A stretch of DNA of 64,000 nucleotides from Solirubrobacteraceae bacterium (GCA_035948945.1 DASZIQ010000048.1:14253-78252); one strand, 5' to 3'; shown: positions 30,993 to 61,048, numbered from the stretch's first letter. Notes: a model not told the origin generated them from the sequence alone. Program-made: numbers and translations.

Positions 30993-32186
30993 TCAGCGGT
31001 CGTCCTGGCGCGAGAACAGCGCCGCCTGCCCTTGCCCCACGCCCACGCACAGCGTGGCGAGGCCGAGGTGGGCGTCGCGGCGGCGCAGCTCGTGCGCGAG
31101 GCTGACCACGAGGCGCGCGCCGCTCATGCCGAGCGGATGCCCAATCGCGATCGCGCCGCCGTTGACGTTGACGCGCGCCGGGTCGAGCCCCAGCTCGCGG
31201 ATCACCGCGAGGCTCTGCGAGGCGAACGCCTCGTTGAGCTCCACGAGGTCGATCTGCTCCACGGCGGTGCCGGTGCGCGCCAGCAGCTTGCGCACCGCGG
31301 GGATCGGGCCGACGCCCATCACCCGCGGATCGACCCCCGCCGAGGCCGAGCCGGCGAAGCGCACGAGCGGCTCGGCGCCGAGCCGCTCCGCCATCGCGGC
31401 GCTTGCGACCACGAGGGCGGCAGCGCCGTCGTTGACGCCGCTGGAGTTGCCCGCGGTGACGCTGCCGCCCGCGCGGAACACGGCGCGCAGCTTCGCCAGC
31501 GCCTCGGGGGTGGAGTCCGGGCGAGGGTGCTCGTCGCGCACGCACTCGCCCACCGGCACCAGCTCCTCGGCGAAGTGTCCCGCGGCGTCGGCCGCCGCCC
31601 AGCGGCGCTGGCTCTCCAGCGCGAAGGCGTCCTGGTCGGCGCGGCTCACGCCCCACCGCTCGGCGACGTTCTCGCCGGTCTCGCCCATGCCCTCCAGCGG
31701 AAACAGCTCCGCCATCGCCGGGTTGGGAAAGCGCCAGCCGATCGTCGTGTCGTACACCGTGCGCTCGCCGCGCGCGAACGCCTTTTCGTCCTTGCCCTGC
31801 ACCAGCGGCGCGCGGGTCATCGATTCCACGCCCCCCGCCAGCGCCAGCTCTATCTCACCTGCGCGGATCGCCTGGCAGGCGCACACCACTGCGGCGAGCC
31901 CCGAGGCGCACAGCCGGTTGACGGTGATCCCGGGGATCTCCTGCGGCAGCCCGGCGAGCAGCAGCGCCATGCGCGCGACGTTGCGATTGTCCTCGCCCGC
32001 CTGGTTGGCGCAGCCCATGTACACCTCCTCGATCTCGCCCGGGTCGAGGCTCGGCACGCGCTCCACCGCGGCGCGCAGCGCGATCGCCGCGAGGTCGTCG
32101 GGGCGCACGCGCGCGAGCGCCCCGCCGTAGCGCCCCACGGGGGTGCGCACGGCGGCGAGGATCACTGGTTCGGGGGTCGAAGTCAT
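30993..32186 (-). CDS. Acetyl-CoA C-acetyltransferase (thiolase II)
   Basis: VNRLCASGL active-site Cys, [12 protein letters not shown], and CVGVGQG C-terminal motif. Confidence 0.9.
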
Positions 32187-32291
32187 GGTCGCGGGCCTCG
32201 GAGGGTGGTGTCAGTGGTCGGGGGCTCCCCGGGTGGCGGTGGATGCCGGTTCCAGCCCGGTTCCACGGATCGGGGGCCGCCAGAGTATCGG

Positions 32292-33143
32292 TTAGCCGCC
32301 GCCCGCCTCGCCATACCCGCGCACGCCGAGCATCCGCCGCGCCTCATCGGGGGTGGCCACGGACCGGCCGAACTCCTCCGCCAAGCGCACCACCCGCTCC
32401 ACCAGTTGCGCGTTGCTGCGCGCCAGCTCGCCGCGGCGGTAGTAGACGTTGTCCTCCAACCCCGTGCGCACGTGCCCGCCGTAGAGCAGGCTCAGCACGT
32501 TCACCTCCAGCTGGTGGCGACCAATCCCGAGCATGCTCCAGCGGGCGCCCTCCGGCAGGCGGCTGACGAGATAGCCGATCGTCTGCAGGTCTGGCGCCGC
32601 CCCGGCGGGCACGCCGATGCACAGCTGCCAGAAGCCCGGCGCCCGCAGCAGCCCTTCGCGCATCAGGCGCATCCCGTTGCGGATCATGCCGCTGTCGAAC
32701 GTCTCGATCTCGACGGCGATATCGAGGTCGCGCAGCCGTTCGGCGGCGGGCTTCAGGAAGGCGTTGTACGGGTTGGCAAACACCCAGTCGTCCCCGAGGT
32801 TCACCGAGCCGCAGTCGAGCGTCGCCATCTCCGGCGCGAGCTCGATGCAGCCAAGGCGCTGCTCGATTGTGGCGCGCCCGCCGGCGCTGCCGGTACTGAG
32901 GTTGACGATCGCCCCACACCCCCGCTCCCGCAGAAGCTCCAGCAGCGCGCGGCACCTCGCCGGGTCCTGTGTCGGCGTGCCGTGCTCGTCGCGGGCGTGC
33001 ACGTGCACGATCGCCGCACCGGCGCGCCAGCTCTCCACCGCCGCCTCGGCGATCTGGTCGAGGGTTAGGGGTATGTGGGGGGATTGCTTGCCGGAGGCGA
33101 TGCTGCCGGTGACCGCGGCGGTGATCATCACGGGGTCGGCCAT
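32292..33143 (-). CDS. Beta-keto acid cleavage enzyme (BKACE/DUF849, 3-keto-5-aminohexanoate cleavage-like)
   Basis: ITAAVTG start, VHVHARD, RTGLEDN motif. Confidence 0.8.
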   Translation of the reverse strand: MADPVMITAAVTGSIASGKQSPHIPLTLDQIAEAAVESWRAGAAIVHVHARDEHGTPTQDPARCRALLELLRERGCGAIVNLSTGSAGGRATIEQRLGCIELAPEMATLDCGSVNLGDDWVFANPYNAFLKPAAERLRDLDIAVEIETFDSGMIRNGMRLMREGLLRAPGFWQLCIGVPAGAAPDLQTIGYLVSRLPEGARWSMLGIGRHQLEVNVLSLLYGGHVRTGLEDNVYYRRGELARSNAQLVERVVRLAEEFGRSVATPDEARRMLGVRGYGEAGGG

Positions 33144-33333: not shown

Positions 33334-34503
33334 ATGAGCAACAGAGCCTCAGTGGCCATCGTCGGGGCGGGAGCAATCGGGCTGAGCGTCGCGCGGGCGC
33401 TCGTGGAGCTGGGCGTCGAGGACGTGGTGGTGTTGGAGCGCACCCACCCGGCCGCCGGCTCCTCCGGGCGTTCGGTGGGTGCGGTGGAGACGCAGTACGT
33501 GGATCCTTTCGACATCGCCCTGCGGGTGTCGTCCAAGCGCGTCTTCGAGCAGCTGGAGCGCGACCACGGGCTGCGCTTTGAGCGCAACGGCTACCTGCGC
33601 ATCGGCCACACCGCCGAGGACGCCGCGCGCTTCGAGCGCAGCGTGGCGGTGCAACGCGAGCTGGGGATCGACGACGCGGTGGTGCTGGACGCGGCGGGCA
33701 TCGCCGCGCGCTTCCCCGACGTGCGCAGCGACGACCTCAGCGCCGGCCTGTACGGGCCCAGCGACGGGTTCGTCGACGGCCACCTCTACTGCATGCTGCT
33801 GGCCGAGCTGGCGCAGGCCGGTGGCGCGCGGCTGAGGCAGCAAACACACCTCACCGGCCACGAGCCGCTCCCCGACGGGCGTCACCGTCTGCTCACCACC
33901 ACCGGCGAGGTGGTGTGCGAGCACGTCGTCAACGCCGCCGGCGCGTGGGCCCAGGAGGTGGGGGAGCTGCTGGGCGTGGCCACGCCGATCCTGCCGCAGC
34001 GCCACGAGGCGGTGAGCATGCACCTGCCGCGCACGCTCGACTACATGATGCCCGAGGTGATGGACTACGCCCCCGCCGAAGGACGCTCGGGGCTGTACTT
34101 CCGCCACGAGACGTTCGACATGTTCCTCGGCGGGCTGCACACCGAGGAGGCGGTGCACCCGGTGGTCGACCCCGACGAGTGGTACGAAGGCGTCGAGCAG
34201 TCCTACCTGGAGCAGCTGGCCGAGCTGCTGCTGTACCGGCTGCCGTCGCTGGCCGACATTCGCCTCGGCCGGGGCTGGGCGGGGCTGTATCCGGTGAGCC
34301 CCGACGGCCGCCCGCTGGTGGGGCCGTGCCCGGAGGATCGGAGTGTGATCGCCGCTTGCGGCGTAGGTGGTTCCGGGATCCAGGTGTCACCGATCGTCGG
34401 GCGACTGGCGGCGGAGTGGATCGTATTTGGGCAGGCGCGCAGCCTGGCGGGGGCGGAGGAGTTGCTGCCGGGACGTGCCTCGCTGTGTGAGTCACGCCCG
34501 TAG
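33334..34503 (+). CDS. FAD-dependent oxidoreductase (DAO family; sarcosine/glycine/amine oxidase-like)
   Basis: N-terminal VAIVGAGAIGLS dinucleotide fold and DAO-type C-terminus. The 3' end overlaps the convergent gene by 12 nt. Confidence 0.8.
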   Translation: MSNRASVAIVGAGAIGLSVARALVELGVEDVVVLERTHPAAGSSGRSVGAVETQYVDPFDIALRVSSKRVFEQLERDHGLRFERNGYLRIGHTAEDAARFERSVAVQRELGIDDAVVLDAAGIAARFPDVRSDDLSAGLYGPSDGFVDGHLYCMLLAELAQAGGARLRQQTHLTGHEPLPDGRHRLLTTTGEVVCEHVVNAAGAWAQEVGELLGVATPILPQRHEAVSMHLPRTLDYMMPEVMDYAPAEGRSGLYFRHETFDMFLGGLHTEEAVHPVVDPDEWYEGVEQSYLEQLAELLLYRLPSLADIRLGRGWAGLYPVSPDGRPLVGPCPEDRSVIAACGVGGSGIQVSPIVGRLAAEWIVFGQARSLAGAEELLPGRASLCESRP

Positions 34504-36546
34504 GGCGCGCGCGAACGCCGCCAGCACGCGGTCGATCACGGCGTCGTCCATCGGTGTGCACACGCACGCCAGCCCGCTGGTCGCGATCAACACGCCCTCC
34601 CGGTAGAGCCGCCACCACAGCTCGGGCAGGCGCTCTGAGTGGAGCTTCAGCAGCGACCCACGCCCGGTCACCTCGTAGCCCTGCTCGGCGAGGCCGGCGC
34701 GCAACCGCTCGCCGAGCGCGTCGATCCGCGCGATCGCCTCCCCGTCGAGCGCGCGCAGCGCGGCGAGGCCGGCGCGCATCGAGACGGGGTTGGCGGAGAA
34801 GGTGCCCGCGACCTGCACCGCGTCGGGGCGGCGCGGGTCGAACACGTCCATCACCTCCGGGCTCCCGCCGAGCGCGCCGATCGGCAGCCCGCCGCCGATC
34901 ACCTTGCCGAGCGTCACGAGGTCGCCCTCGATCCCCCACACACGCCCCGCGCCGCCGGCGCCCATCCGGAAGGTGATCACCTCGTCGAGGATCAGGACGA
35001 TCCCCCGCCGGGCGGTCTCCGCGCGCACGAGGTGGGCGAAGTCGCGCTCCAGCGGGCGCAGGCCGGCGCGGTAGGGCATCAGGTCGAGCAGCACGCAGGC
35101 CACCTGCCCTTCGCGGCGGTCGAGCGCGGCGACGAGACCCTCGCCGTCCCCCAGGGCAACACTCACCACGGCGCCCTTCGCACCCGCCGGCACGCCGCGC
35201 GCCGGGCGGGCGGGGTCCAAATCAGCCAGCGCGTCCCAGGCGCCGTGGTAACAGCCCGCGAAGCGCACCGCCACCTCGCGCCCGGTGGCGGCCCGTGCCG
35301 CACGCACGGCCGCCATCACCGCCTCGGTGCCCGAGCCGGCGAAGCGCCACCGCGGCGCCCACCCGACGCGCTCGGCAAGGTGCTCGGCCAGCTCCACCTC
35401 CGCCGCCGTGGGCAGCCCGAACGCGCTGCCCTCCGCCAGCGCCCGCGTCGCCGCGGCGAGCACCGGCGCGAACGCATGGCCGTGCACGAGCGCGGAGTAG
35501 TCGCCGTGCAGGTCGACCAGCTCGTGGCCGTCCGTGTCGATCAGCCGCCACCCCTCGCCGCGCCGCGCGTACGGGGTGTGGGGGTCCACGTACAGCGTCG
35601 TGCGCGAGGCGCCGCCGGGAAAGCGCGCGTCGGCGCGCTCGTACAGCCGCTCGCTGCTGGCCGAAACGGGGACTCGCGCCGAAGGCGCGTGTCTACCGGC
35701 TTCGGCCGAGCCGGGGACGCCTCCATGCCCCGGATCGACGGCCTCCGCGGGCAGCGGGTTGGAGCCCGCGAAGAAGCTCGCGACGAACGCGTTCGGCGGG
35801 TTGGCGTACAGCTCGGCGGGCGACCCGACGCCCACGATCGCGCCGTCGTGCATGACCGCGATCGTGTCCGACAGCGCGTACGCCTCCTGCTGGTCGTGCG
35901 TCACGTACACGACGGTCGCGCCGAGCTCGTGTTGCAGCGTGCGGATCTCGCGCTCCATCTCGATGCGCAGCGCGCGGTCGAGCGCCCCGAGCGGCTCGTC
36001 CATGAGGATGATCTCGGGGTCGTACACGAGCGCGCGCCCGAGCGCCACCCGCTGCTGCTGGCCGCCCGAGAGCTGACGGGGGCGGCGCTCGCCGAGGCCC
36101 GAGAGGCGCAGCAGCTCGAGCATCGCCTGCACGCGGCGCTCGCGCTCGGCGCGCGGCACGCCGCGCAGCTTCAGCCCGTAGCCGATGTTCTGGACGACGG
36201 TCATATGGGGAAAGAGCGCGTAGTGCTGAAACACCATGCCGACGCCCCGCCGCGCGGGGGGCAGCCGCGAGATGTCGCGCCCGCGCAGGAGCACCTCCCC
36301 GCCGCTGGGAGCCTCGAAGCCGGCGATCACCTTCAGCAGCGTGGTCTTGCCCGAGCCGGAGGGGCCGAGCAGCGTAAGAAGCTCGCCGCGGTGGACGCTC
36401 AGGTCGACGCCGCCGAGCGCGGGGGTGCTGCCGTAGGACTTGTGCAGCGAGCGGATCTCCAAGACCAGCTCGCGGTCGCCGGGCGCATCACGCGACTGTA
36501 CGGCGGGCTGCTGGAGAGGCGGTCGCCGCTCGCCGCCGGCAGCCAT
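34492..36546 (-). CDS. In-frame fusion: PotA-like ABC importer ATPase (aa ~27-262) + class-III aminotransferase (GSA-aminomutase-like, aa ~300-684)
   Basis: Walker A GPSGSGKTT, LSGGQQQR, ILMDEP, then no stop. Linker contains a REP-like element. Aminotransferase then begins at its usual N-terminus (ERLYERADARFPGG) and carries the Lys motif LGKVIGGGLP. Confidence 0.75.
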   Translation of the reverse strand: MAAGGERRPPLQQPAVQSRDAPGDRELVLEIRSLHKSYGSTPALGGVDLSVHRGELLTLLGPSGSGKTTLLKVIAGFEAPSGGEVLLRGRDISRLPPARRGVGMVFQHYALFPHMTVVQNIGYGLKLRGVPRAERERRVQAMLELLRLSGLGERRPRQLSGGQQQRVALGRALVYDPEIILMDEPLGALDRALRIEMEREIRTLQHELGATVVYVTHDQQEAYALSDTIAVMHDGAIVGVGSPAELYANPPNAFVASFFAGSNPLPAEAVDPGHGGVPGSAEAGRHAPSARVPVSASSERLYERADARFPGGASRTTLYVDPHTPYARRGEGWRLIDTDGHELVDLHGDYSALVHGHAFAPVLAAATRALAEGSAFGLPTAAEVELAEHLAERVGWAPRWRFAGSGTEAVMAAVRAARAATGREVAVRFAGCYHGAWDALADLDPARPARGVPAGAKGAVVSVALGDGEGLVAALDRREGQVACVLLDLMPYRAGLRPLERDFAHLVRAETARRGIVLILDEVITFRMGAGGAGRVWGIEGDLVTLGKVIGGGLPIGALGGSPEVMDVFDPRRPDAVQVAGTFSANPVSMRAGLAALRALDGEAIARIDALGERLRAGLAEQGYEVTGRGSLLKLHSERLPELWWRLYREGVLIATSGLACVCTPMDDAVIDRVLAAFARALRA
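35659..35707. repeat. REP-like palindromic element copy (inside the fusion linker)
   Basis: The reverse complement matches 59128-59176 at 46/49 positions. Central stem CGCGCC-GAA-GGCGCG. Confidence 0.85.
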
Positions 36547-36563
36547 CTCCGTCTGCACCTCGC

Positions 36564-37439
36564 TCACCGCTCGGCCCGGGTGAGTCGCAGGACGAAGACC
36601 ATCACGACGCTGGTGCCAAGGATCAGCAGCGCGGTGATCGCCGCCACCACCGGTTCGAGGCCGAAGCGCACCGTGTCGAAGATCGCGCGCGGCAGCGTTT
36701 CCTGGCCGGCGCCGCCGAGGAACACGACGAACACGGACTCGTCGAAGCTCGTCATGAACGCGAGCACAGCGCCGGCGAGGATCGCGGGAGCGAGCAGCGG
36801 CAAGGTAATGCCGAGCCACGCGCGCACACGGCTGGCGCCGGTGACCATCGCCGCCAGCTCGAGGTCTTCGGGGATGCGGCTAAACGCGGGGCTGCACACC
36901 AGCAGCATCACCGGGATCGCGAGCGTGGAATCGGCGAGCACCAGCCCGAGGTAGGTGCCGAGCAGGCCGACCTGCGCGAACAGGCCGTACATCGCCACCG
37001 CGTACGCCGACACCGGCAGCACGAGGCCCGTCAGCCCGCCGAGTTGCAGCGCGCCCCGGCCCGGCAGGCGGCTGCGGTGAAAGACGAACAGCACCGGCAC
37101 GACCACCGCGCAGGAGAGCAGCGCGACGGGCACGGCGATCTTGACCGACAGCAGCAGCGCCGAACCCCAGCGCGGATCTTCGAACAGCAGGCGGTACTGA
37201 CGCCAGCCCCAGACGCGCGGCGGAAACGCGAAGAAGCGTTCGCCCGAGAACGACAGCGCCACCGTCATAGCCGGCGGGAGCAGCATCACGAACGCAATCA
37301 GCGCCGTGGCGGCGGCCCCGAGGGCGCGCGTGAACGGGTCGCCGGCGACACGCATGGCGGCCCCGGCGCGGCCAAGGGAGGCCCGCCATGGCGCAACGGT
37401 TGCAGGCGCGCCAGGCGGCAGCGGGCGGGCGGGCTGCAT
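36564..37439 (-). CDS. ABC importer permease (PotC-like)
   Basis: 6-TM binding-protein-dependent permease with an EAA-like loop (EDLELAAMVTGASRVRAWLGITLP). ATG overlaps the upstream stop (TGATG). Confidence 0.8.
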   Translation of the reverse strand: MQPARPLPPGAPATVAPWRASLGRAGAAMRVAGDPFTRALGAAATALIAFVMLLPPAMTVALSFSGERFFAFPPRVWGWRQYRLLFEDPRWGSALLLSVKIAVPVALLSCAVVVPVLFVFHRSRLPGRGALQLGGLTGLVLPVSAYAVAMYGLFAQVGLLGTYLGLVLADSTLAIPVMLLVCSPAFSRIPEDLELAAMVTGASRVRAWLGITLPLLAPAILAGAVLAFMTSFDESVFVVFLGGAGQETLPRAIFDTVRFGLEPVVAAITALLILGTSVVMVFVLRLTRAER

Positions 37440-38293
37440 CACGCCACCGCCCGCGCCAGCCGCCCGCGACCGACGAGCGCCAGCGCCCCGGCGAGCACGG
37501 CGAGCGCCGCGACCAGCAGGATCACGGCGGCGGCGCTGGCCACCGGGAAGTCGAAGAAGGTGAAGATGTAGTCGCCGATGAAGCTCGCCATGAACGGCGT
37601 CTGCGCGCCGCCGAGCAGCACCGGCGTGATGTAGAAGCCGAGCGAGATCGCGAACACGAGCGCGGTGGCCGCCACGATCCCCGGCAGCGCCAGCGGCAAA
37701 AGCACGGTGCGCGTCGCGTACAGCCGCGAAGCGCCCATCCCCCGCGCGGCGTCGAGCAGCGTGCGGTCGACCGTGAGGAACACGCCGTAGAGCGTGAGCG
37801 CGGCGTAGGGGAGCATCGTGTACACCATCCCGATCCCGACGGCGGTGGAGGTGTAGAGGATCGACAGCGACCCCAGCCCCAGCGTCTGCGTGAGCTGGTT
37901 GAGCGGCCCTTCGGCAGAGAGCAGCAGGACGATCGAGTAGTTCTTGACGACCGTCCCCATCCAGAAGGGCACGAGCACGGCCAGCCACAGCACCGCCTTC
38001 ACGGCGGAGGAGCGGGCCGTGCGGATGTACCACGCCAACAGCCCGCCGAGCAGCACCGCGGCGAGGCTGACGAGCGCGGCGGCGGCGAACGTGGTGATCA
38101 GCGAGCGCCGGCCGGCGGAGCTTTCGAACACGGCCGCGTAGTTGCCGAGGCCGGAGCCAGTGGTGAGCGATTCGACGATCAGCTTGACCAGCGGGTAGAG
38201 CACCAGCCCACCCAGCACCAGCAGCAGCGGCGCCGCCAGCACGAGCGCCCAGCGGTTGCCGAGCACCGGCCGCCAGACGGCGCCGCTGTTCAC
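37439..38293 (-). CDS. ABC importer permease (PotB-like)
   Basis: EAA-like loop LLDAARGMGASRLYATRTVLLP. 6 TM segments. Confidence 0.8.
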   Translation of the reverse strand: MNSGAVWRPVLGNRWALVLAAPLLLVLGGLVLYPLVKLIVESLTTGSGLGNYAAVFESSAGRRSLITTFAAAALVSLAAVLLGGLLAWYIRTARSSAVKAVLWLAVLVPFWMGTVVKNYSIVLLLSAEGPLNQLTQTLGLGSLSILYTSTAVGIGMVYTMLPYAALTLYGVFLTVDRTLLDAARGMGASRLYATRTVLLPLALPGIVAATALVFAISLGFYITPVLLGGAQTPFMASFIGDYIFTFFDFPVASAAAVILLVAALAVLAGALALVGRGRLARAVA

Positions 38294-38383: not shown

Positions 38384-39475
38384 CTATCCCCGCAGGAAGT
38401 TCTCGTAGGCGGTATTGAGTTCGGTGCCGTGCAGCGCATACCAGGTGAAGTTTGGCACCGCCAGCTGGTTGTAGTTGACGGGGTTGTCGGCGAGCTGGAC
38501 GGCGAACGACTTGGGGATGTACTGGAGCGCCTTGGGGCTGGGCACGGAGACGTGCACTTCCTGCGCCCACTGCGCCTGGTTCTTGGGATGGCTGGCGATC
38601 CAGCTGAGCAGTTTGAACGCGGTCTGCTCATGCGGCGCACCCGCCAAAACCGTCCAGAAGCTGGGTTCGTAGACGCCCTGGGCCCACACGATCTTCACCT
38701 TCACGCCCTCGGCGGCGAGTTCGTAGGCGCGGTTGCTCCACATGATTCCCATGTCCACCTGCCCGGAGCGCATCACCTGCACCTGCTGTTCGCCGGACTG
38801 CCAGAAAACCTTGATGTAGGGCTTGAGGGGTTCGAGCGTTTTGATCACCCGCCCCACATTCACCGGCGCCGTGGCGGTCGCCGAGATCGGCATCCCCGCG
38901 GCCACCTCGGCCTCGGTGGCCTCCTCGATTGGTTCGATCCCCCCAAACATGCGCGACTGAGGGAAGGCCTTTGTGTCGAAGAACTGGGTGGTGTTGGCCG
39001 GGCAGGTGGTCATCTTGGCGGTGAGGCAGACAATCACGTAGCCGAGGTTGGCGTGTGAGAAGCCCCACGTCGTGACGTTCTTGGGGGTCAATTCGCGTTC
39101 CAGTTCGGTTTTGGTGGCTGCCGGCAGCGACGCCAGCTGGTGCTTGGCGGCGAGCGCGTAGGCGGCGCCGCCGCCGACCGAGTCGAGTGCGTCCCATTCG
39201 ATCTTGCCGGCTTTGTTTTGCGCTTCCACGCGCGCCTCCTGCTCGCCCGGCGCGTCGACGAAGGCGAAGCTGGTGTGATTTTCGGCGTCAAACGGCTTCA
39301 GGTAGGACTTTTCGGTGGCTTCATTGATCGGCGCCCCCCAGTCGCCGATCGTGAGCGTGGTTTTGGTGGAGCTGCTGCCGCACGCCGCCACCCCGACCGC
39401 GGCGAGCAGCGCGAGGGTTGCGCAGATCGCGCCGCGCGCCCGCTGGCGGGGAATGGGAATCCCACCCACCCGCAT
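38384..39475 (-). CDS. Extracellular solute-binding lipoprotein (PotD/PotF-like)
   Basis: Start at ATG 39475. Lipobox LAAVGVAAC|GSS. Family-1 SBP-like sequence, upstream of the two permeases. Confidence 0.8.
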   Translation of the reverse strand: MRVGGIPIPRQRARGAICATLALLAAVGVAACGSSSTKTTLTIGDWGAPINEATEKSYLKPFDAENHTSFAFVDAPGEQEARVEAQNKAGKIEWDALDSVGGGAAYALAAKHQLASLPAATKTELERELTPKNVTTWGFSHANLGYVIVCLTAKMTTCPANTTQFFDTKAFPQSRMFGGIEPIEEATEAEVAAGMPISATATAPVNVGRVIKTLEPLKPYIKVFWQSGEQQVQVMRSGQVDMGIMWSNRAYELAAEGVKVKIVWAQGVYEPSFWTVLAGAPHEQTAFKLLSWIASHPKNQAQWAQEVHVSVPSPKALQYIPKSFAVQLADNPVNYNQLAVPNFTWYALHGTELNTAYENFLRG

Positions 39476-39486
39476 CCCACCCACCC
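39461..39486 (-). promoter_or_regulatory. G-quadruplex-prone tract GGGTGGGTGGGATGCGGGTGGGTGGG spanning the start codon of the SBP gene
   Basis: Six G3 runs with 1-4 nt loops on the coding strand. The ATG (39475-39473) lies in the central loop. Made of two tandem copies of GGGTGGGTGGGAT. Confidence 0.5.
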
Positions 39487-39488
39487 TC

Positions 39489-39520
39489 TCGCCGAAGGCG
39501 CGTGTCTCCCGGCTTGGGCC
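39489..39520. repeat. Half copy of the REP-like element
   Basis: TCGCCGAAGGCGCGTGTCTCCCGGCTTGGGCC matches the right half of the 35659-35707 copy. Confidence 0.7.
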
Positions 39521-39630: not shown

Positions 39631-40692
39631 TCAGCGGAACACCGCGTCCAACGTGTCCCGCTGAAACGCCGGCCGCGAGTCGAGCACCCGATGGCCTATG
39701 ACTGTGAGCACTGCCTGTGCGGCGTAGCGGGCCGTCCGGCCCCCGCCTACGTCGTACTGGGGAATCATCTCACAGACATCGAACGCTCCCACACTGCCGA
39801 ACTGGCCCACGACGGCGAGCGCCTCCAGCACCTCCCCGGAGGTGAGGCCGTCGAGCGCGATCGAGTGGGTGCCGGGCGCGTAGGCGCCGTCGGTGGCGTC
39901 GATGTCAAACGTCACGTATAGGTGGGTGACCCCCTCGGAGGCGAGCTCGAGCGCCTCGCGAATCGTCGCCTGCACGCCGCGGCGGCGGATCGAGGCGACG
40001 GTGTAGGCGGCGAAGCTGCGCTCGCGGCACAGCTCAAGCGCCGCGGGCTCGATCAGGAGAGAGCCGTTGCGAGAGCCGTTGAGGCCCCACCACACCATCC
40101 GGCCGACGGCCTCGTGCTCGGCGATGCGCCGCGCGAACGTGCCGTGGTTGTAGCGGCCCATGTCCTTGAACTCATCCCACAGGTCGAAGTGGGCGTCGAT
40201 GTTGAGGAACCCCACCCGAGCGTCCGGTTCGCGCGCGCGGACGCCGCGCACGAAGCCCACGAATGAGGGGTAGGGCACGAAGTGATCGCCGCCGAGCACC
40301 ACGGGCAGCGCGCCGCGCTCCACGATCTCCGCGACGGGTGCGGCGATCGCCTCGATCTGGGCGCGCACGTCGCCCTGGTGCAGGCGCACGTCCCCCACGT
40401 CGAACAGGCGCGGGTGCTCGGGCACGGTCCACACGCTCCCGTCGCCCACGTCCACGTAGCCGACGGGCTCGAGCTGCTGGCCGAAGTAGCCGGCCAGGAA
40501 CAGAGAGGCCTCGCGGATCGCGCGGGGGGCGTAGCGCTGACCGTTGCGCCCGAGCGTCCAGGAGTCCAGGGGCGCGCCGAGCACCGCGACTGAGCCAGAC
40601 GGGAGCTCCGCGGGCGTGGCCGCGGGCGCACGGTAGAAGGTGGTGGGACCGGCGTACCAGTGCACGGTGTCGAGCTGGGGGGCGACGGACAT
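39631..40692 (-). CDS. Ureohydrolase (agmatinase / guanidino-acid hydrolase / arginase family)
   Basis: Mn-ligand motifs GGDH, NIDAHFD, TFDIDATD. 353 aa. Confidence 0.85.
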   Translation of the reverse strand: MSVAPQLDTVHWYAGPTTFYRAPAATPAELPSGSVAVLGAPLDSWTLGRNGQRYAPRAIREASLFLAGYFGQQLEPVGYVDVGDGSVWTVPEHPRLFDVGDVRLHQGDVRAQIEAIAAPVAEIVERGALPVVLGGDHFVPYPSFVGFVRGVRAREPDARVGFLNIDAHFDLWDEFKDMGRYNHGTFARRIAEHEAVGRMVWWGLNGSRNGSLLIEPAALELCRERSFAAYTVASIRRRGVQATIREALELASEGVTHLYVTFDIDATDGAYAPGTHSIALDGLTSGEVLEALAVVGQFGSVGAFDVCEMIPQYDVGGGRTARYAAQAVLTVIGHRVLDSRPAFQRDTLDAVFR

Positions 40693-40827: not shown

Positions 40828-42372
40828 TCAGCGCTGCACGACCGTACGCGACTGCTCGCGCATGAACTGCGGCAGGTAGTAGGGACCGAGCCCGCCCTTG
40901 CCGGTGGTGCCGGAGGACTTCCAGCCGCAGAAGGACTGGGTTCGCGGCCACGCGCCGGTGGTGGCGCCGGCGCGGCGGTTGACGTACAGCACGCCGGCCT
41001 GCATCTCATCCAAGAACCGATCGATCTCGCCCTGATCGGAGCTGAAGATCCCGGCGGTGAGACCGTAGTCGGTGGCGTTGGCCTCAGCGAACGCCTCATC
41101 GAGCGTGGCGACCCGGGTGACGGTCAGGAAGGGCAGGAAGAGCTCCTCGCGTGTGAGGGGGTGCCCGCGCGGGAGGTCGGCGACGACCGTCGGCTCGGCG
41201 AACCACCCCTCTGGGCGGGGCAGGCCGCCGCCGAGCGCGACCTGCCCATCGCGGCGGGCGGCATCGACGCTCTCACGGAAGCGCTGGAAGGCGCGCGCGT
41301 CGACGACGGGCCCGAGAAACGCATCGCGTTCAGACGGGTCGCCGACCGAGAGCGTGGCGGTGAACGCGCAGAGGCGTTCCAGCAGCTCCTCATGGACGCC
41401 GTCGAGCACGATCGCGCGCGAACAGGCGGAGCACTTCTGCCCGGAGAGCCCGAAGGCCGCCCGCGCGAGACCCTCGGCGGCCGCGTCGAGATCGGCCGAG
41501 GCGGTGACGATCGCGGGGTTCTTGCCGCCCATCTCGGTGAGGGCGGGGCGCGCGTAGGGGCCGGTCACGAGCTTGCGCGCGATCTCTCGCCCGACCTCGG
41601 CGGAGCCGGTGAAGGCGATCCCGTCCACGGGGGCGTCCACCAGCGCGCGGCCGGTCGCGGGGCCTCCGTGCAGGAGGTTGAAGACCCCGGGGCCCAACTC
41701 ACCCGCGAGCAGCGCCTCGGCGAGCAGCGCGCCGGTCCAGGGGGCATCCTCGGAGGGCTTGACGACGACGGTGTTGCCGGCGAGCAGCGCGGCGGCCGTC
41801 ATCCCGACGGTGAGCGCGAGCGGGAAGTTGAAGGGCGCGATCACCCCGAAGACGCCGTAGGGCCGGAGGATCTCGGTGCCGCGCTCGGCGGGGGTGAAGC
41901 TGGCCAGCGGCGCGACGAAGCCGTCATGGCGCTCCATCTCCTCGGAGTAGGTCTCGACCAGCTCGATCGCCTCCTGCACCTCGACGATCGCCTCGGTGCG
42001 GCTCTTGCCGGTCTCCGCGCTCATCACCGCGGCGAGCTCGATGTGGCGCTCGGAGATCGCGCGCGCGACGGCGGCGAGGCGCTCCAGGCGCTCGCGGTAG
42101 GGGGTGCGCCGCCACTGTGCGCGAGCCTCACGGGCAGCGTCGACCGCTTGCGCGACGGTCTGCGGGCCTGCGGCGTGGGCGCGGCTGGCGACGCGGTCGA
42201 TATGGGAGGGGTCGGCCCGTTCGAAGACGGGGCCTTCGGCGGAGAGCCGTCCGCCGATCACGTGCGGCCACGGCTCGGGCGGGGCGGCGCGCGCGTCGCG
42301 CAGGCACCGCTCGAACTCCGCATGGGCCGCGGAGTCGAGGCCACCGCTCGTGTATGTGAGTCGCACGGCCAT
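40828..42372 (-). CDS. Aldehyde dehydrogenase, 1-pyrroline-5-carboxylate dehydrogenase-like
   Basis: Start at ATG 42372. EMGGKN, GQKCSACS catalytic Cys, C-terminal WPRTQSFCGWKSSGTTGKGG typical of RocA/PruA-type enzymes. Confidence 0.85.
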   Translation of the reverse strand: MAVRLTYTSGGLDSAAHAEFERCLRDARAAPPEPWPHVIGGRLSAEGPVFERADPSHIDRVASRAHAAGPQTVAQAVDAAREARAQWRRTPYRERLERLAAVARAISERHIELAAVMSAETGKSRTEAIVEVQEAIELVETYSEEMERHDGFVAPLASFTPAERGTEILRPYGVFGVIAPFNFPLALTVGMTAAALLAGNTVVVKPSEDAPWTGALLAEALLAGELGPGVFNLLHGGPATGRALVDAPVDGIAFTGSAEVGREIARKLVTGPYARPALTEMGGKNPAIVTASADLDAAAEGLARAAFGLSGQKCSACSRAIVLDGVHEELLERLCAFTATLSVGDPSERDAFLGPVVDARAFQRFRESVDAARRDGQVALGGGLPRPEGWFAEPTVVADLPRGHPLTREELFLPFLTVTRVATLDEAFAEANATDYGLTAGIFSSDQGEIDRFLDEMQAGVLYVNRRAGATTGAWPRTQSFCGWKSSGTTGKGGLGPYYLPQFMREQSRTVVQR

Positions 42373-42422
42373 CTGACGCTCGATCGTCACGCTAGCGCAG
42401 GGTGCCGCTGGCGGGCGGGCGG

Positions 42423-42564
42423 GCCACATTGCTACGGCAGGCGGGCAAGCCACCACCGCTGCGGCCGGTAGGCGAGCGAGCCACCATTGCTACGGCCGGC
42501 GGGCAAGCCACTGCTGCGGCGGGCGTGCGAGGCGAGCCACCGATGCTGCGGCCGGCGGGCGAGC
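42423..42564. repeat. Five degenerate tandem repeats (26-31 nt, consensus GCCACCNNTGCTRCGGCCGGCGGGCRA)
   Basis: Read directly. Units start at 42423, 42449, 42480, 42507 and 42536. Units 1 and 3 are 25/27 identical. Unit lengths are not multiples of 3. Located in a divergent intergenic region. Confidence 0.8.
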
Positions 42565-42599
42565 TGTCGGCCCCGCAGGTGGTGGCTAGCCAAAATGTT

Positions 42600-42623
42600 A
42601 TACTGAACCATATGGTTCAGTAT
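42600..42623. promoter_or_regulatory. Perfect 24-bp palindrome ATACTGAACCATATGGTTCAGTAT centred on the ArsR-family start codon (candidate operator)
   Basis: Perfect dyad read directly. AT-rich island in GC-rich DNA. The ATG 42612-42614 lies at the dyad centre. Confidence 0.6.
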
Positions 42624-43010
42624 CGTCCCGTCGTTCATCATCGTCCCGAGCTCGACCGGCCCTTGGCGGCCCTCGCGGACTCCAATCGCCGCCTCATCCT
42701 GCAGCAGCTGGGGCAGGGCAGCGCCACCGTCACCGAGTTGGCCGAGCCATTCGGGATGTCGCTGACTGGGCTAAAGAAGCACTTGCAGGTGCTGGAGGAG
42801 GTCGGGCTGGTGAGCACCGAGAAGGTCGGGCGCACACGGATCTGCAGCCTCGGACCACGGCGTCTGGACGACGTCCAGCAGTGGATCGAGGCCTATCGAG
42901 TCATGTTGGACGAGCGCCTCGACCGCCTCGGCGAGCTGATCGAGGGCGCCGCGGATGAAGCGGTGACGTCCGGCGAGATACAGGGACCGGCGAGCAGAGA
43001 GCCGCAGTGA
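42612..43010 (+). CDS. ArsR/SmtB-family transcriptional regulator
   Basis: LAALADSNRRLILQQLGQGSATVTELAEPFGMSLTGLKKHLQVLEEVGLV winged-HTH. Confidence 0.8.
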   Translation: MVQYRPVVHHRPELDRPLAALADSNRRLILQQLGQGSATVTELAEPFGMSLTGLKKHLQVLEEVGLVSTEKVGRTRICSLGPRRLDDVQQWIEAYRVMLDERLDRLGELIEGAADEAVTSGEIQGPASREPQ

Positions 43011-58186: not shown

Positions 58187-58952
58187 GGCGGTGGGGCGCC
58201 AGCGCCGCCCCCCCTGGCGTGGTCTTGGTGAGGCGCGCATACACCAGCAGCCGTTCGGCGGCGCTGAACAGGGGCGTGCAGGCAGAGAGCACGAGGCGGC
58301 TGTAGCCGGCGTGACGGATTGCCGAGGCCACATCGGAGGGCAGGACGCTGCGGTGCCCGATCACCGTGTAGAGGAAGTGCGCGTAGGGCATGTCCACCAC
58401 GATCCGATCCCCGCGGCGCAGCTCGTCGATGTGGCGGAAGGGCGCCAGGAAGGTGGTGCGGTGGCCGGCGATCGCGGTGGTGCCCCCCAGGCCGGGGAAG
58501 CGCGTGCCCGGGTAGCTGCTCTGCGTGTAGATCCCCGGCCCCCGCTCTAGTTCTTCGGTGCCGGTGCCGTACACCAGCACGAAGTCGGCGCCGATGCGCG
58601 GGATGCGGATGGAGCCCACGGCGCTGCCGAGGGCCGCGTGACGGGCAAGCTCGCTCGCCAGGAAGGCGACGCGGCCGCGCTCGTCCGCGAGCTCCAGCAG
58701 GCGCGCGTTCTCCCGCGCGGTGGGCTTGGCATGTTCGAGCTCGTGCAGCGCGCCCCGCAGGTGGTCCTGCTGCAACGTGGCATACAACGCCGAGAACGGC
58801 TCCTGCCACACCAGCGTGACGCCCACGTCGAGCAGCGCCAGCGCCCCCAGGACGATCAGCGCGCTCGAGAGCGCCCGCAGCGCGCGGCGCCCGCGCGCGG
58901 GGTCCCGGCGGCCGTGCACGGGTGGGCTGAGGAGGGTCTCGGACACGATCAC
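58128..58952 (-). CDS. Class E-like sortase (transpeptidase)
   Basis: N-terminal TM (ALSSALIVLGALALL), TAIAGHRTT His, LVLSACTP Cys (TLxTC-type), downstream Arg. GTG 58952 overlaps the upstream stop (GTGA). The 3' end overlaps the convergent MFS gene by 59 nt. Confidence 0.8.
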   Translation of the reverse strand: MIVSETLLSPPVHGRRDPARGRRALRALSSALIVLGALALLDVGVTLVWQEPFSALYATLQQDHLRGALHELEHAKPTARENARLLELADERGRVAFLASELARHAALGSAVGSIRIPRIGADFVLVYGTGTEELERGPGIYTQSSYPGTRFPGLGGTTAIAGHRTTFLAPFRHIDELRRGDRIVVDMPYAHFLYTVIGHRSVLPSDVASAIRHAGYSRLVLSACTPLFSAAERLLVYARLTKTTPGGAALAPHRLTRRSPPPPLQAPLPRLQG

Positions 58953-61048
58953 CGTCGCAGCGCGGACTGGGTGCCGACCGAAGCTGGGAGACACGCGCCT
59001 TTGGCGCTGGCCGATTTGGGGATGCGAGCGAAGCGAGTGTCTCCCCAATCGGTCCCCATTTCGGCCAGCGACCCGGGTCCAGCATAGGACAGCGGCCCGC
59101 GACCGAAGCCGGGAGACGCGAGCCGGTGACCGAAGCCGGGTGACACGCGCCTTCGGCGCGAGTCCCCGTTTCGGCCAGCATCCCCGTTTCGGCCAACGAT
59201 CGGCTCGCGATCGCCGGGCCACTCATGCGGCTCGCCGGCGTCGTCCTCGTTGGCGACGCGCGGGGCGAGCGCCACCAGCAGCGCCGCCGCGAGACAGCCG
59301 CAGGCGACGGACCACAGCACCGCGCCGGCGAACCCGATGCGCCCGCCGGCGAGCAGCAGCAGCGCGGTGTGCGCCACGCCTCCGGGCCCCAGGTGGAGCT
59401 GGTGAGCGTAGAAGGCCACAAGCAGCGCGAGCGGCGCCACGCCGAGCGCGACCAGCGCGAGCGCCTGGATGCGGCCCCCGCCGGCCCTGCCCCCGCCCGC
59501 GCCGACGCCGCGCCCGCCTGCACCCCACGCGCCGGGCGGCGCGGCGGCGAATATCAGCCACAGGTTCAATGCCGGCAGGAGCAGCAGCGCGGTGAACGGA
59601 TCGGACACCCATACCACCACCGTGAGGCCGCCTAGCACGAGCAGCATCCCGAGCGCCGCGGCGTCGCCCTGCGGACGCACCGGGAGTGCGAGCCGGCGCA
59701 TCAGCGCCGGCCACGCCAGCCAGGCGAGCACCAGCACGAGCGCGCTCGCCAGCACCGCCTCCAGGGCGTGGCCGTCGAACGGGAGCGCCGCTTCGGAGAC
59801 GGGCGGGCGCGGCGCGGGGATCGCGCCGAGCGAGCCCAGCAGGATCGCGAACAGCGCACAGGCGAGGAACGGGAGCGCGCACGCCAGCGCCCACACCACC
59901 CAGCGCCCGGCCGATCGATCGGAGGCGCCGCGGGTCGGCCCGCGGCGCCGGCGCAGGCGCGCGAGGCCGTCCCCGAGCACCGCCAGCGCCGGCAGCAGCA
60001 GCGCCGCGACCAGCAGGCGCAGCGCCCACGCGGGGATCGCCTTCTGCTGGATCGGCAGCCCCGTTTCGAGGCCGCTCTCATTCGCTTCGCCGCCGCCGAT
60101 CGTAGGCCCGCCGTCCAGCGCGTACACGGCGGCGAGCGCCGCGCGCCCGAGCGCTTCCAGGCGTCCCGCGCTCACCGGTTCGCCGGCCGGGGGAGCCTGT
60201 TCGCCGCCGGCTCCCACCAGCACCGCGGGCAGCCCGTGGGCATCGAGCGAGCTCTGTTCGCCGCCGGCGAGCGGGAAGGCGAGGTGCGCGAGCTGCGTGA
60301 GCATCCCGGGGGCGGCGGTCGAGCCCCCCGCCTGCTGCGCGACCGCCGCCGCCACGGTGCTCTGCAACAGCGCCGGCGCCGAGCCCGCAGAGGCCGAGAA
60401 CGACGCCACCTCGGGCCCGGACGCGCGCGTGCCCGCGAGATCGCCGAGCACCAGCGCGGCGTCGAAGCGGCCGCCCAGGATTTCGCTCGCGTGCGCCGCG
60501 AAGTCCGCGGCCCCTCCGTTCCCGCCCGAGCCGCCGCTGGTCGAGACCAGCACGATCGCATGCTGCGTCTCGCCGGCGGCGAGCACCCGCGCGAGTTCGA
60601 GCAGCGCCGCGGTGGCGGACAGCTCCGCCTTTGATGGGAACCCACCCGCCCCGGCGGCGTCGCGGTGGGCGAGGATCACGATCGGCGTCTCCCCCGTGGT
60701 GCCAGGCCGTTGCGCGATCACGGTGGTGAGCGTGCGCTCCCCGTCGATCGTCTGCGCGCGCACGCTGCGCGTGCTCACCGCGAAGCCACCCTTGGCGGCG
60801 CCCCCCAACCCCCGCAGCGTCCCCGCCACGTACGCGGCGAGCCGCTGGTCGCCCGCGCTGCCGGGGCGGCGTTCGGGAAACTGCCGGGCGAGCCCTTGCA
60901 GCGTGGCGAAGGCGCGCGCGCCTTCGAAGGCGTCGGGAGCAAGGTTGGAGCCGAGCGGCGCGGTGCGCCCGGTGAGCGAGAAGCCCGCGATCACCAACGC
61001 GAACAGCAGCGGGGCGAACGCTGCGCGATAGATGCGTCCGTTGAGCAC
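58949..61048 (-). CDS. Polytopic membrane protein with M28-peptidase-like extracytoplasmic domain (metal ligands appear degenerate)
   Basis: PIVILAHRDA and ALLELARVL resemble M28, but the expected Asp and Glu-Glu ligand positions are not conserved by eye. Start set at GTG 61048 because the longer ORF overlaps treT. C-terminal ~85 aa are encoded by REP-like elements. Confidence 0.55.
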   Translation of the reverse strand: MLNGRIYRAAFAPLLFALVIAGFSLTGRTAPLGSNLAPDAFEGARAFATLQGLARQFPERRPGSAGDQRLAAYVAGTLRGLGGAAKGGFAVSTRSVRAQTIDGERTLTTVIAQRPGTTGETPIVILAHRDAAGAGGFPSKAELSATAALLELARVLAAGETQHAIVLVSTSGGSGGNGGAADFAAHASEILGGRFDAALVLGDLAGTRASGPEVASFSASAGSAPALLQSTVAAAVAQQAGGSTAAPGMLTQLAHLAFPLAGGEQSSLDAHGLPAVLVGAGGEQAPPAGEPVSAGRLEALGRAALAAVYALDGGPTIGGGEANESGLETGLPIQQKAIPAWALRLLVAALLLPALAVLGDGLARLRRRRGPTRGASDRSAGRWVVWALACALPFLACALFAILLGSLGAIPAPRPPVSEAALPFDGHALEAVLASALVLVLAWLAWPALMRRLALPVRPQGDAAALGMLLVLGGLTVVVWVSDPFTALLLLPALNLWLIFAAAPPGAWGAGGRGVGAGGGRAGGGRIQALALVALGVAPLALLVAFYAHQLHLGPGGVAHTALLLLAGGRIGFAGAVLWSVACGCLAAALLVALAPRVANEDDAGEPHEWPGDREPIVGRNGDAGRNGDSRRRRVSPGFGHRLASPGFGRGPLSYAGPGSLAEMGTDWGDTRFARIPKSASAKGACLPASVGTQSALRR
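58976..59198. repeat. Cluster of REP-like palindromic elements (at least 3 full or partial units)
   Basis: Best unit is 59128-59176, GACCGAAGCCGGGTGACACGCGCCTTCGGCGCGAGTCCCCGTTTCGGCC. Partial units at 59099-59127 and 59181-59194. Composite unit at 58976-59068 with a nested hairpin, CCGATTTGGGGA...TCCCCAATCGG. Confidence 0.85.

Follow-up and report, generated by a model that had tools for sequence, protein, structure and literature searches.

The 64,000-nucleotide stretch of Solirubrobacteraceae DNA analyzed here (GCA_035948945.1, DASZIQ010000048.1:14253-78252; hereafter the window, with positions counted from its first letter) encodes a 684-aa protein that joins, in one minus-strand open reading frame (ORF), the nucleotide-binding domain (NBD) of an ATP-binding cassette (ABC) importer to a class-III aminotransferase dependent on pyridoxal phosphate (PLP). 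The two modules are connected by a linker of roughly 35 aa that is encoded in part by an element resembling repetitive extragenic palindromic (REP) sequences. The ORF has the following features:

34492..36546, minus strand: fusion ORF, 684 aa, comprising ABC importer nucleotide-binding domain, linker, and class-III aminotransferase (stop codon at 34492-34494)
35749..36546, minus strand: ATPase module, aa 1-266, with all ABC motifs, ending ...FVASFFAGSNPLP (from profiles and comparison with unfused ATPases)
36343..36366, minus strand: Walker A motif GPSGSGKT, aa 61-68 (read from the translation)
35656..35748, minus strand: interdomain linker, aa 267-297, AEAVDPGHGGVPGSAEAGRHAPSARVPVSAS, without an in-frame start codon and hypervariable in length in relatives
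35659..35718, no strand assigned: REP-like element, translated core ~aa 280-296, with a 49-nt imperfect palindrome at 35659-35707
34495..35655, minus strand: aminotransferase module, aa 298-684, glutamate-1-semialdehyde (GSA) aminomutase-like, starting at the usual ERLYERA..FPGG N-terminal helix (from profiles and alignment)
34903..34905, minus strand: codon of the PLP-binding lysine K548 (LGKVIGGG), read from the sequence and invariant in the alignment

The frame is free of stop codons from an ATG at 36546 to its end, and it carries Pfam matches to both ABC_tran (aa 45-186, E 9e-37) and Aminotran_3 (aa 327-664, E 2e-40). The ATPase half is a complete nucleotide-binding domain of the PotA/MalK type, with the motifs GPSGSGKT, MVFQ (Q-loop), LSGGQQQR, ILMDEP (Walker B), LGALD, and VTHDQ (H-loop) in ABC order. 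An earlier reading of this DNA (the original prediction) had described a PotA-like ATPase with Walker A, Walker B, and signature motifs, whose frame runs on through a linker instead of a regulatory domain and stop; both descriptions are borne out. The best NCBIfam matches of this half are PhnT2, PotA, and UgpC. The PotA, PhnT2, MalK, CysA, and UgpC profiles align over their first 215-257 positions only. Because the remaining ~110-130 C-terminal profile positions are unmatched, and Pfam gave no TOBE match in the fusion protein, we conclude that the C-terminal TOBE/OB-fold domain (~110-130 aa) is absent. The ATPase falls below every equivalog cut-off (for PotA, 307.6 versus 482 bits with NF006987 and 307.8 versus 355.6 bits with TIGR01187), too low for a substrate assignment.

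The aminotransferase half is recognizable as a class-III (fold type I) enzyme. In addition to the Aminotran_3 match, it has the Schiff-base lysine, the DE(V/I)xT(F)R aspartate, and the SGTEA and GTFSANP phosphate-binding motifs. K548, D521/E522, S405-G406-T407, and T582 are invariant or nearly so across 46 aligned sequences. The enzyme had been predicted to be complete, with a normal N-terminus and its PLP lysine, and the alignment agrees. Among solved structures, 6k8h and ForI come closest (E about 1e-78), ahead of glutamate-1-semialdehyde aminomutase (GSAM) and beta-transaminases. Identity with HemL was considered and rejected, as the score is far under the equivalog cut-off (TIGR00713, 262 versus 527.3 bits) and the gene lies in a catabolic transporter operon. 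Joint Genome Institute (JGI) annotations label the whole fusion 'glutamate-1-semialdehyde aminomutase', which is wrong on both counts.

The aminotransferase module has no start codon in front of it. No in-frame ATG, GTG, or TTG occurs at aa 250-319 of the window protein, and the sole one in aa 250-332, a GTG at aa 320, sits 11 residues past the conserved FPGG and thus within the enzyme core. The linker does contain a Shine-Dalgarno-like GGAGG, with no in-frame start codon after it. An internal start had been proposed at an in-frame GTG in VPVSAS; the valines there are encoded by GTC and GTT, which removes this candidate. Given that no ATG, GTG, or TTG precedes the core, the aminotransferase appears to have no route to synthesis except as the C-terminal half of the chain that begins with the ATPase.

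The N-terminus of the fusion is uncertain by a few codons, as translation may begin at the ATG at 36546 or at an in-frame GTG four codons 5'. A longer version of the frame, opening at a GTG, overlaps the upstream permease gene and is not needed. In the window and in cluster P0007, translation starts ~21-23 codons 5' of the M/V-SGGELVLEIRSL start of most relatives, a position at which the window lacks any start codon (window 36471-36560; locus L161 6001). Because start positions differ, the permease/ATPase boundary is a 17-nt gap in the window versus a 4-nt overlap in relatives.

Judging from its relatives, the fusion is real, inherited, conserved, and confined to a narrow clade of soil Solirubrobacterales. 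Searching 5.8 billion proteins, we identified nine clusters with both Pfam domains that are 79-97% identical to the window protein (P0001-P0009; P numbers denote protein clusters from searches, and L numbers fetched loci). Their lengths are 640-690 aa, apart from one 550-aa fragment. The sources are JGI metagenomes, metagenome-assembled genomes (MAGs) from the European Nucleotide Archive (ENA) and NCBI, and one Logan assembly. Eight fused loci were fetched, and the same operon is present in those long enough to show it. The window protein itself is found on two contigs, the second being a 54.6-kb JGI contig in a separate record that is identical to the window over 6055 nt. A search for the ABC_tran plus Aminotran_3 architecture, suggested along with the original prediction, found it in a single 50%-identity cluster, the clade's own, when the 150 top-scoring hits out of 1.84 billion representative proteins were examined. 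The few longer matches among these 150 are duplicated ATPases with TOBE_2; very distant fusions would rank below the best 150. In a literature search, no publication mentioned ABC_tran plus Aminotran_3 as an architecture. Together, ten related single ORFs, constraint on both halves (see below), and the lack of an internal start support a genuine transporter-enzyme fusion, as had been proposed, as far as can be read from the DNA.

It is extremely improbable that the fusion is an assembly or sequencing artifact, or that a recent inactivating REP insertion destroyed the stop codon in one genome. Misassembly is possible at palindromic repeats, and one relative (P0022, locus L171) has frameshifts. 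Against this, the fusion occurs in ten sequence variants from independent samples and platforms, three of them without a full palindromic unit; the second contig repeats the window sequence exactly; both halves are under purifying selection; and the L171 frameshifts occur in an assembly full of 1-nt indels that break neighboring genes as well.

Several candidates were examined and set aside. P0022 (402 aa, 89% identical) had the appearance of an ATPase-only, unfused relative. It is the same fusion broken by 1-nt indels, from a long-read MAG (L171) in which the neighboring genes are fragmented too. More generally, many 1-nt indels split the permease, ATPase, and aminotransferase genes on the long-read MAG contigs L170 and L171, and the 'split' protein versions from these assemblies are artifacts. 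Three other loci from GTDB genomes, L005 (Salinibacterium), L006 (Aeromicrobium), and L001, appeared to match both modules and were rejected as fusions because the two halves are separate ORFs. In the first two, the aminotransferase is followed by a different, GlnQ-type ATPase; in the third, LivG/LivF-type ATPases precede the aminotransferase.

On a neighbor-joining tree built from the conserved parts, the fused sequences form two subclades that are ~84% identical, one containing the window, L163, L164, L161, L168, and L165 and the other L167, L166, and L162. The unfused loci L169 and L081 fall outside both. At the divergence between the subclades (dS ~0.3-0.4), the ratio of nonsynonymous to synonymous substitution rates (dN/dS) came to 0.17-0.20 in the ATPase half; the aminotransferase half gave 0.26-0.28. 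Thus, both halves are under purifying selection (dN/dS 0.17-0.30).

Part of the linker is repeat DNA, as had been predicted: the 49-nt palindrome encodes ~aa 280-296, and copies occur at three other loci. Its arms, GGCCGAAACGGGGAC and GTCTACCGGCTTCGGCC, flank a GCGCC-GAA-GGCGC core, and an additional arm copy is present at 35704-35718. Elsewhere in the window, the family is represented by:

39486..39519, no strand assigned: partial REP-like copy in the spacer between the arginase-family and binding-protein genes
58976..59200, no strand assigned: cluster of simple and composite REP-like units of the same family as the linker element

The cluster includes a near-identical copy of the 49-nt palindrome (59128-59176) and a composite copy (58976-59066), and from this clustering of units we conclude that the linker element belongs to a dispersed family. 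In shuffled sequence, ~0.02 such repeat matches are expected by chance. The family occupies four loci in the window, and further copies are found in spacers and linkers of relatives, including a composite copy in L162 (3105-3192), also in the spacer between the arginase-family and binding-protein genes. A TCGGCC motif occurs on the flanks of the palindromic unit; it may simply be arm sequence. Neither the operon nor the second repeat cluster had a match in Rfam scans. The 86-nt region that holds the linker repeat has a predicted fold of -49 kcal/mol (z = -3.7).

A separate ORF for an M28-peptidase-like membrane protein (58949..~61090, minus strand) also involves this family. Its last ~85 residues read through the REP-like cluster (58949-59200) before the stop, and it may be a second case of translated repeats or of a displaced stop codon.

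The linker evolves fast. We measured the junction between the codons for FVASFF and ERA..RFPGG in nine alleles (the window and the eight fetched loci). The lengths are 69, 72, 78, 129, 147, 168, 168, 171, and 210 nt, and every allele keeps the frame and has no stop. L161 and L162 have the shortest linkers, at ~20 residues. Length differences correspond to whole repeat units, with one to three full units where any are present. Two unit types were distinguished, a 49-nt type-1 palindrome (45 nt net) and a 45-nt type-2 palindrome that nests in type 1; the nested unit occurs in L165 and L167 and in the intergenic copies at 58976-59066 and in L162 (3105-3192). The L163 and L164 linkers have other related repeat units. 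The presence of repeats is patchy on the tree: L161 and L164 are 99% identical in the conserved parts and 96 nt apart at the junction, the sister sequences L168 and L165 differ there by 93 nt, and both subclades have the composite unit at one shared site (in L165 and L167). L161, L162, and L168 lack a full palindromic unit, although L161 keeps one arm, so the fusion does not require the repeat. That every one of these alleles keeps the frame is consistent with selection acting on the enzyme downstream. In an AlphaFold2 monomer model (46-sequence alignment), the mean predicted local distance difference test (pLDDT) score is 60 and residues 262-325 have low pLDDT; the short linker is probably unstructured.

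These properties of the linker also bear on whether two proteins could be made from the one ORF, by noncanonical internal initiation, mRNA processing at the REP hairpin, or proteolysis in the linker, which we consider very unlikely. A linker predicted to be unstructured could be open to cleavage, the repeat-bearing mRNA is predicted to fold strongly, and some relatives have GTG or ATG within their linkers. REP hairpins in Escherichia coli shape mRNA decay. The linker start codons of relatives occur at nonconserved positions, however, and the window has none before the enzyme core, including after the Shine-Dalgarno-like sequence. If the mRNA were cut in the hairpin, the aminotransferase segment would lack both a start codon and a ribosome-binding site.

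The original prediction had called for a comparison with orthologous operons to see whether they hold two genes or one, and the answer depends on distance. Members of the fused clade (79-97% identity) have one gene, and relatives at 72% identity or less have two, an ATPase with a ~115-aa TOBE-like tail followed by the aminotransferase. In L169 (72% identical), the ATPase has 413 aa, with the ~115-aa tail following ...FVASFFANANLLPVE, and a GTGA overlap joins its stop to the GTG at which the 399-aa aminotransferase begins. L081 and L082 (~65% identical) have ATPases of 369 and 356 aa followed by the aminotransferase, with a gap of 36 nt in L081, and L004 (71% identical) is likewise unfused. The unfused tails have sub-threshold TOBE_2 matches at the expected place; distant homologous ATPases have clear TOBE_2 matches.

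Alignment of fused and unfused versions shows that the fused clade lacks the stretch from just past ...PLPVE in the ATPase to about six residues before ERLYERA. This stretch of ~125 codons corresponds to the TOBE-like domain, the stop, and the aminotransferase start. From the two-gene state of the relatives, we infer that the fusion arose by deletion of the ATPase tail, its stop codon, and the aminotransferase start. The ancestral genes would have been adjacent and translationally coupled, and in the ancestor of a narrow Solirubrobacterales clade the ~125-codon deletion would have joined the nucleotide-binding domain in frame to the aminotransferase. The event is old, as it is common to two subclades separated by dS ~0.3-0.4.

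Related repeats occur at the same place in an unfused relative. In the Solirubrobacteraceae MAG L004 (3317-3500), a single TGA divides two modules that share one frame, an ATPase that keeps its TOBE-like tail and the aminotransferase. The ~50 codons between these modules hold 21-nt REP-arm-like tandem repeats, at the same position as the window linker, and the final ~45 nt ahead of the ERLY codons look like the 3' half of the element in the window. Since unfused L004 has related repeats there, REP-like DNA was probably present in the spacer or leader before the deletion, to be carried into the linker and later gained and lost; if the repeats predate the fusion, the linker is at least partly recycled spacer DNA. 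The original prediction had offered, as an alternative to a genuine fusion, REP-mediated loss of a stop codon. One component of this is retained, in that REP-like DNA probably pre-existed in the spacer. As stated, the proposal is not supported, since ~125 codons are gone rather than one stop, the event is old, and three fused relatives have no full palindromic unit.

Stand-alone aminotransferase homologs (P0087, P0027, P0081, and P0028) have N-terminal leaders of ~5 to 66 residues, several with short tandem peptide repeats. Such leaders are generally hypervariable and repeat-rich, and by this comparison repeat expansion has a general hot spot just before the enzyme core.

Around the fusion, the genome encodes the other components of an importer and several putative catabolic enzymes:

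40828..42456, minus strand: aldehyde dehydrogenase, first gene of the operon (profile match)
39631..40692, minus strand: arginase-family ureohydrolase, agmatinase/formiminoglutamase-like, under equivalog cut-offs
38384..39475, minus strand: periplasmic-type solute-binding protein, SBP_bac_8 (PotD/PotF type)
37439..38293, minus strand: permease 1 of the importer, BPD_transp_1
36564..37415, minus strand: permease 2 of the importer, BPD_transp_1
33334..34503, plus strand: FAD-dependent oxidoreductase, DAO family, convergent with the fusion, the 3' ends overlapping by 12 nt

Both permeases and the binding protein are encoded directly upstream of the fusion on the same strand, and no second ATPase was found in the operon. 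The longer fused loci show the order aldehyde dehydrogenase, arginase family, binding protein, two permeases, fusion, DAO, beta-keto acid cleavage enzyme (BKACE), and thiolase. The conserved core consists of the aldehyde dehydrogenase, ureohydrolase, PotD-like binding protein, aminotransferase, and DAO oxidoreductase. The DAO gene follows the aminotransferase on the same strand in the unfused loci L081, L082, and L169 and in fused L162, so it has been inverted locally in most of the fused clade. The gene content suggests an operon for catabolism of a polyamine-like or guanidino amine or amino acid, with all assignments under equivalog cut-offs.

Other genes lie beside the operon. The window positions 30993-33143 encode a BKACE near 3-keto-5-aminohexanoate cleavage enzyme (310 bits versus a cut-off of 382) and a 3-oxoadipyl-CoA-thiolase-like protein. 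As these two accompany the operon in the fused clade only, they are outside the conserved core. In L169 (8313-13124), an Lhr helicase takes their place after the operon. An ArsR/HTH_20-type regulator (42402-43010, plus strand), divergent from the first operon gene, is a candidate regulator of the operon.

How might the fused protein work? Importer ATPases function as dimers whose C-terminal domains touch each other, and the homodimer is obligatory for class-III aminotransferases, whose active sites lie at its interface. As both families are dimeric, two fusion chains could plausibly form an ATPase dimer with an aminotransferase dimer below it. We propose that two chains sit under the two permeases as an ATPase dimer, and that the aminotransferase halves form a PLP-enzyme homodimer on flexible linkers, replacing the lost C-terminal domain dimer. 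Pump and enzyme would then occur in a fixed 1:1 ratio, and the enzyme that first processes the amine would stay where the importer opens into the cytoplasm; the substrate is probably a polyamine-like or guanidino amine or amino acid. The joint would be a short linker derived partly from REP-like repeats, since gained and lost in multiples of three bases, and any frame-breaking change in it would abolish the aminotransferase. We think it probable that this explanation holds as a whole, from a deletion-born fusion with a repeat-derived linker to an enzyme made as part of the fusion and a 1:1 pump-enzyme assembly.

A number of observations weigh against this proposal. Every fused sequence comes from metagenomes or MAGs. 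The in-frame pattern is weaker as evidence given that each repeat unit measures 45 nt net, which is divisible by three. Noncanonical initiation or proteolytic cleavage in the linker could still yield separate proteins. The ATPase half is poorly modeled by AlphaFold2, and the model was therefore not used for fold search or geometry. Finally, the channeling of an imported amine directly into transamination that the original prediction had suggested, regulation of the pump by the enzyme, and a geometric fit of the two dimers are all predictions.

A serious rival, possible though less probable, is that the single chain is real but a neutral frozen accident, in which a deletion joined co-expressed genes with dimeric products and brought neither channeling nor regulation. 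The frame would then be kept only because the aminotransferase lost its own start. The translational coupling of the ancestral genes (the GTGA overlap in L169) and the restriction of the architecture to one narrow clade are consistent with such an accident, and the tolerance of the linker for ~20 to ~65 residues of any repeat-derived sequence argues against precise geometric coupling. However, loss of the regulatory domain has been tolerated over dS ~0.3-0.4 while the ATPase half stayed strongly constrained, which suggests that the new partner is at least compatible with transport. Sequence alone does not separate an accident of this kind from the proposed 1:1 assembly. At the other extreme, the PLP-enzyme dimer might have replaced the function of TOBE and made the importer a self-regulating transport metabolon, with ATP hydrolysis and uptake gated by the first catabolic enzyme through its catalytic or ligand state, and with linker length, which varies even among nearly identical strains, tuning the coupling, although we consider this quite unlikely.

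Gene fusion within an operon and translation of palindromic repeats are already known kinds of event, and the protein described here is a variant of them. Like PotA, PotG, MalK, and CysA, the fusion has all NBD motifs and is encoded with a PotD/F-like binding protein and two BPD_transp_1 permeases, and its unfused orthologs keep a TOBE-like tail. It differs from these ATPases in that the regulatory domain is wholly gone, with a 387-aa PLP enzyme in its place, and in scoring under every equivalog cut-off. With GSAM-like class-III aminotransferases (HemL; the beta-transaminases 2yku and 4ao9; ForI, 6ssd; GntE), it shares the fold family and the GK(V/I)IGGG lysine motif. Unlike them, the enzyme has no start of its own and is joined N-terminally to an ATPase; it is not HemL and belongs to a catabolic transporter operon. 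As in other Rosetta-stone fusions of operon genes, the modules are separate neighboring genes in relatives and a single ORF here, with both parts constrained; in this case, a whole domain of the upstream partner was lost as well.

Enterobacterial REP sequences and bacterial interspersed mosaic elements (BIMEs), and repeats of the mycobacterial interspersed repetitive unit (MIRU) type, resemble the linker element in being short imperfect palindromes or repeats between genes of one operon, in mosaic clusters and with frame-compatible unit lengths. The element described here shows no sequence similarity to them, has no Rfam match, and lies inside an ORF. Rickettsia palindromic elements (RPEs), of ~150 bp, are palindromic repeats that occur as in-frame inserts in protein genes and are translated (PMC10969869). 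The window element is similarly a dispersed palindrome translated in a functional protein, absent as a full unit from some close relatives and at a site where the fold should tolerate it. In contrast to RPEs, its units are 45-49 nt long, its host belongs to the phylum Actinomycetota (Thermoleophilia), and it lies in an interdomain linker that was formerly an intergenic spacer, so that it may not have inserted into an existing ORF.

The whole-protein GSA-aminomutase label is a practical lesson for annotation. The locus shows that REP-like repeats in high-GC Actinomycetota can persist and turn over inside a functional protein as a linker, much like the Rickettsia elements, and suggests that intergenic spacers can be recycled into interdomain linkers. 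Feedback control of uptake is known to act through the C-terminal domains of importer ATPases (MalK, MetN, ModC, and PotA). In these Solirubrobacterales, the locus would be a natural case in which such a regulatory handle was swapped for an enzyme of the pathway fed by the importer. If the two activities are coupled, the fusion would serve as a compact, naturally occurring model of transport metabolons and as a template for engineered pump-enzyme fusions.

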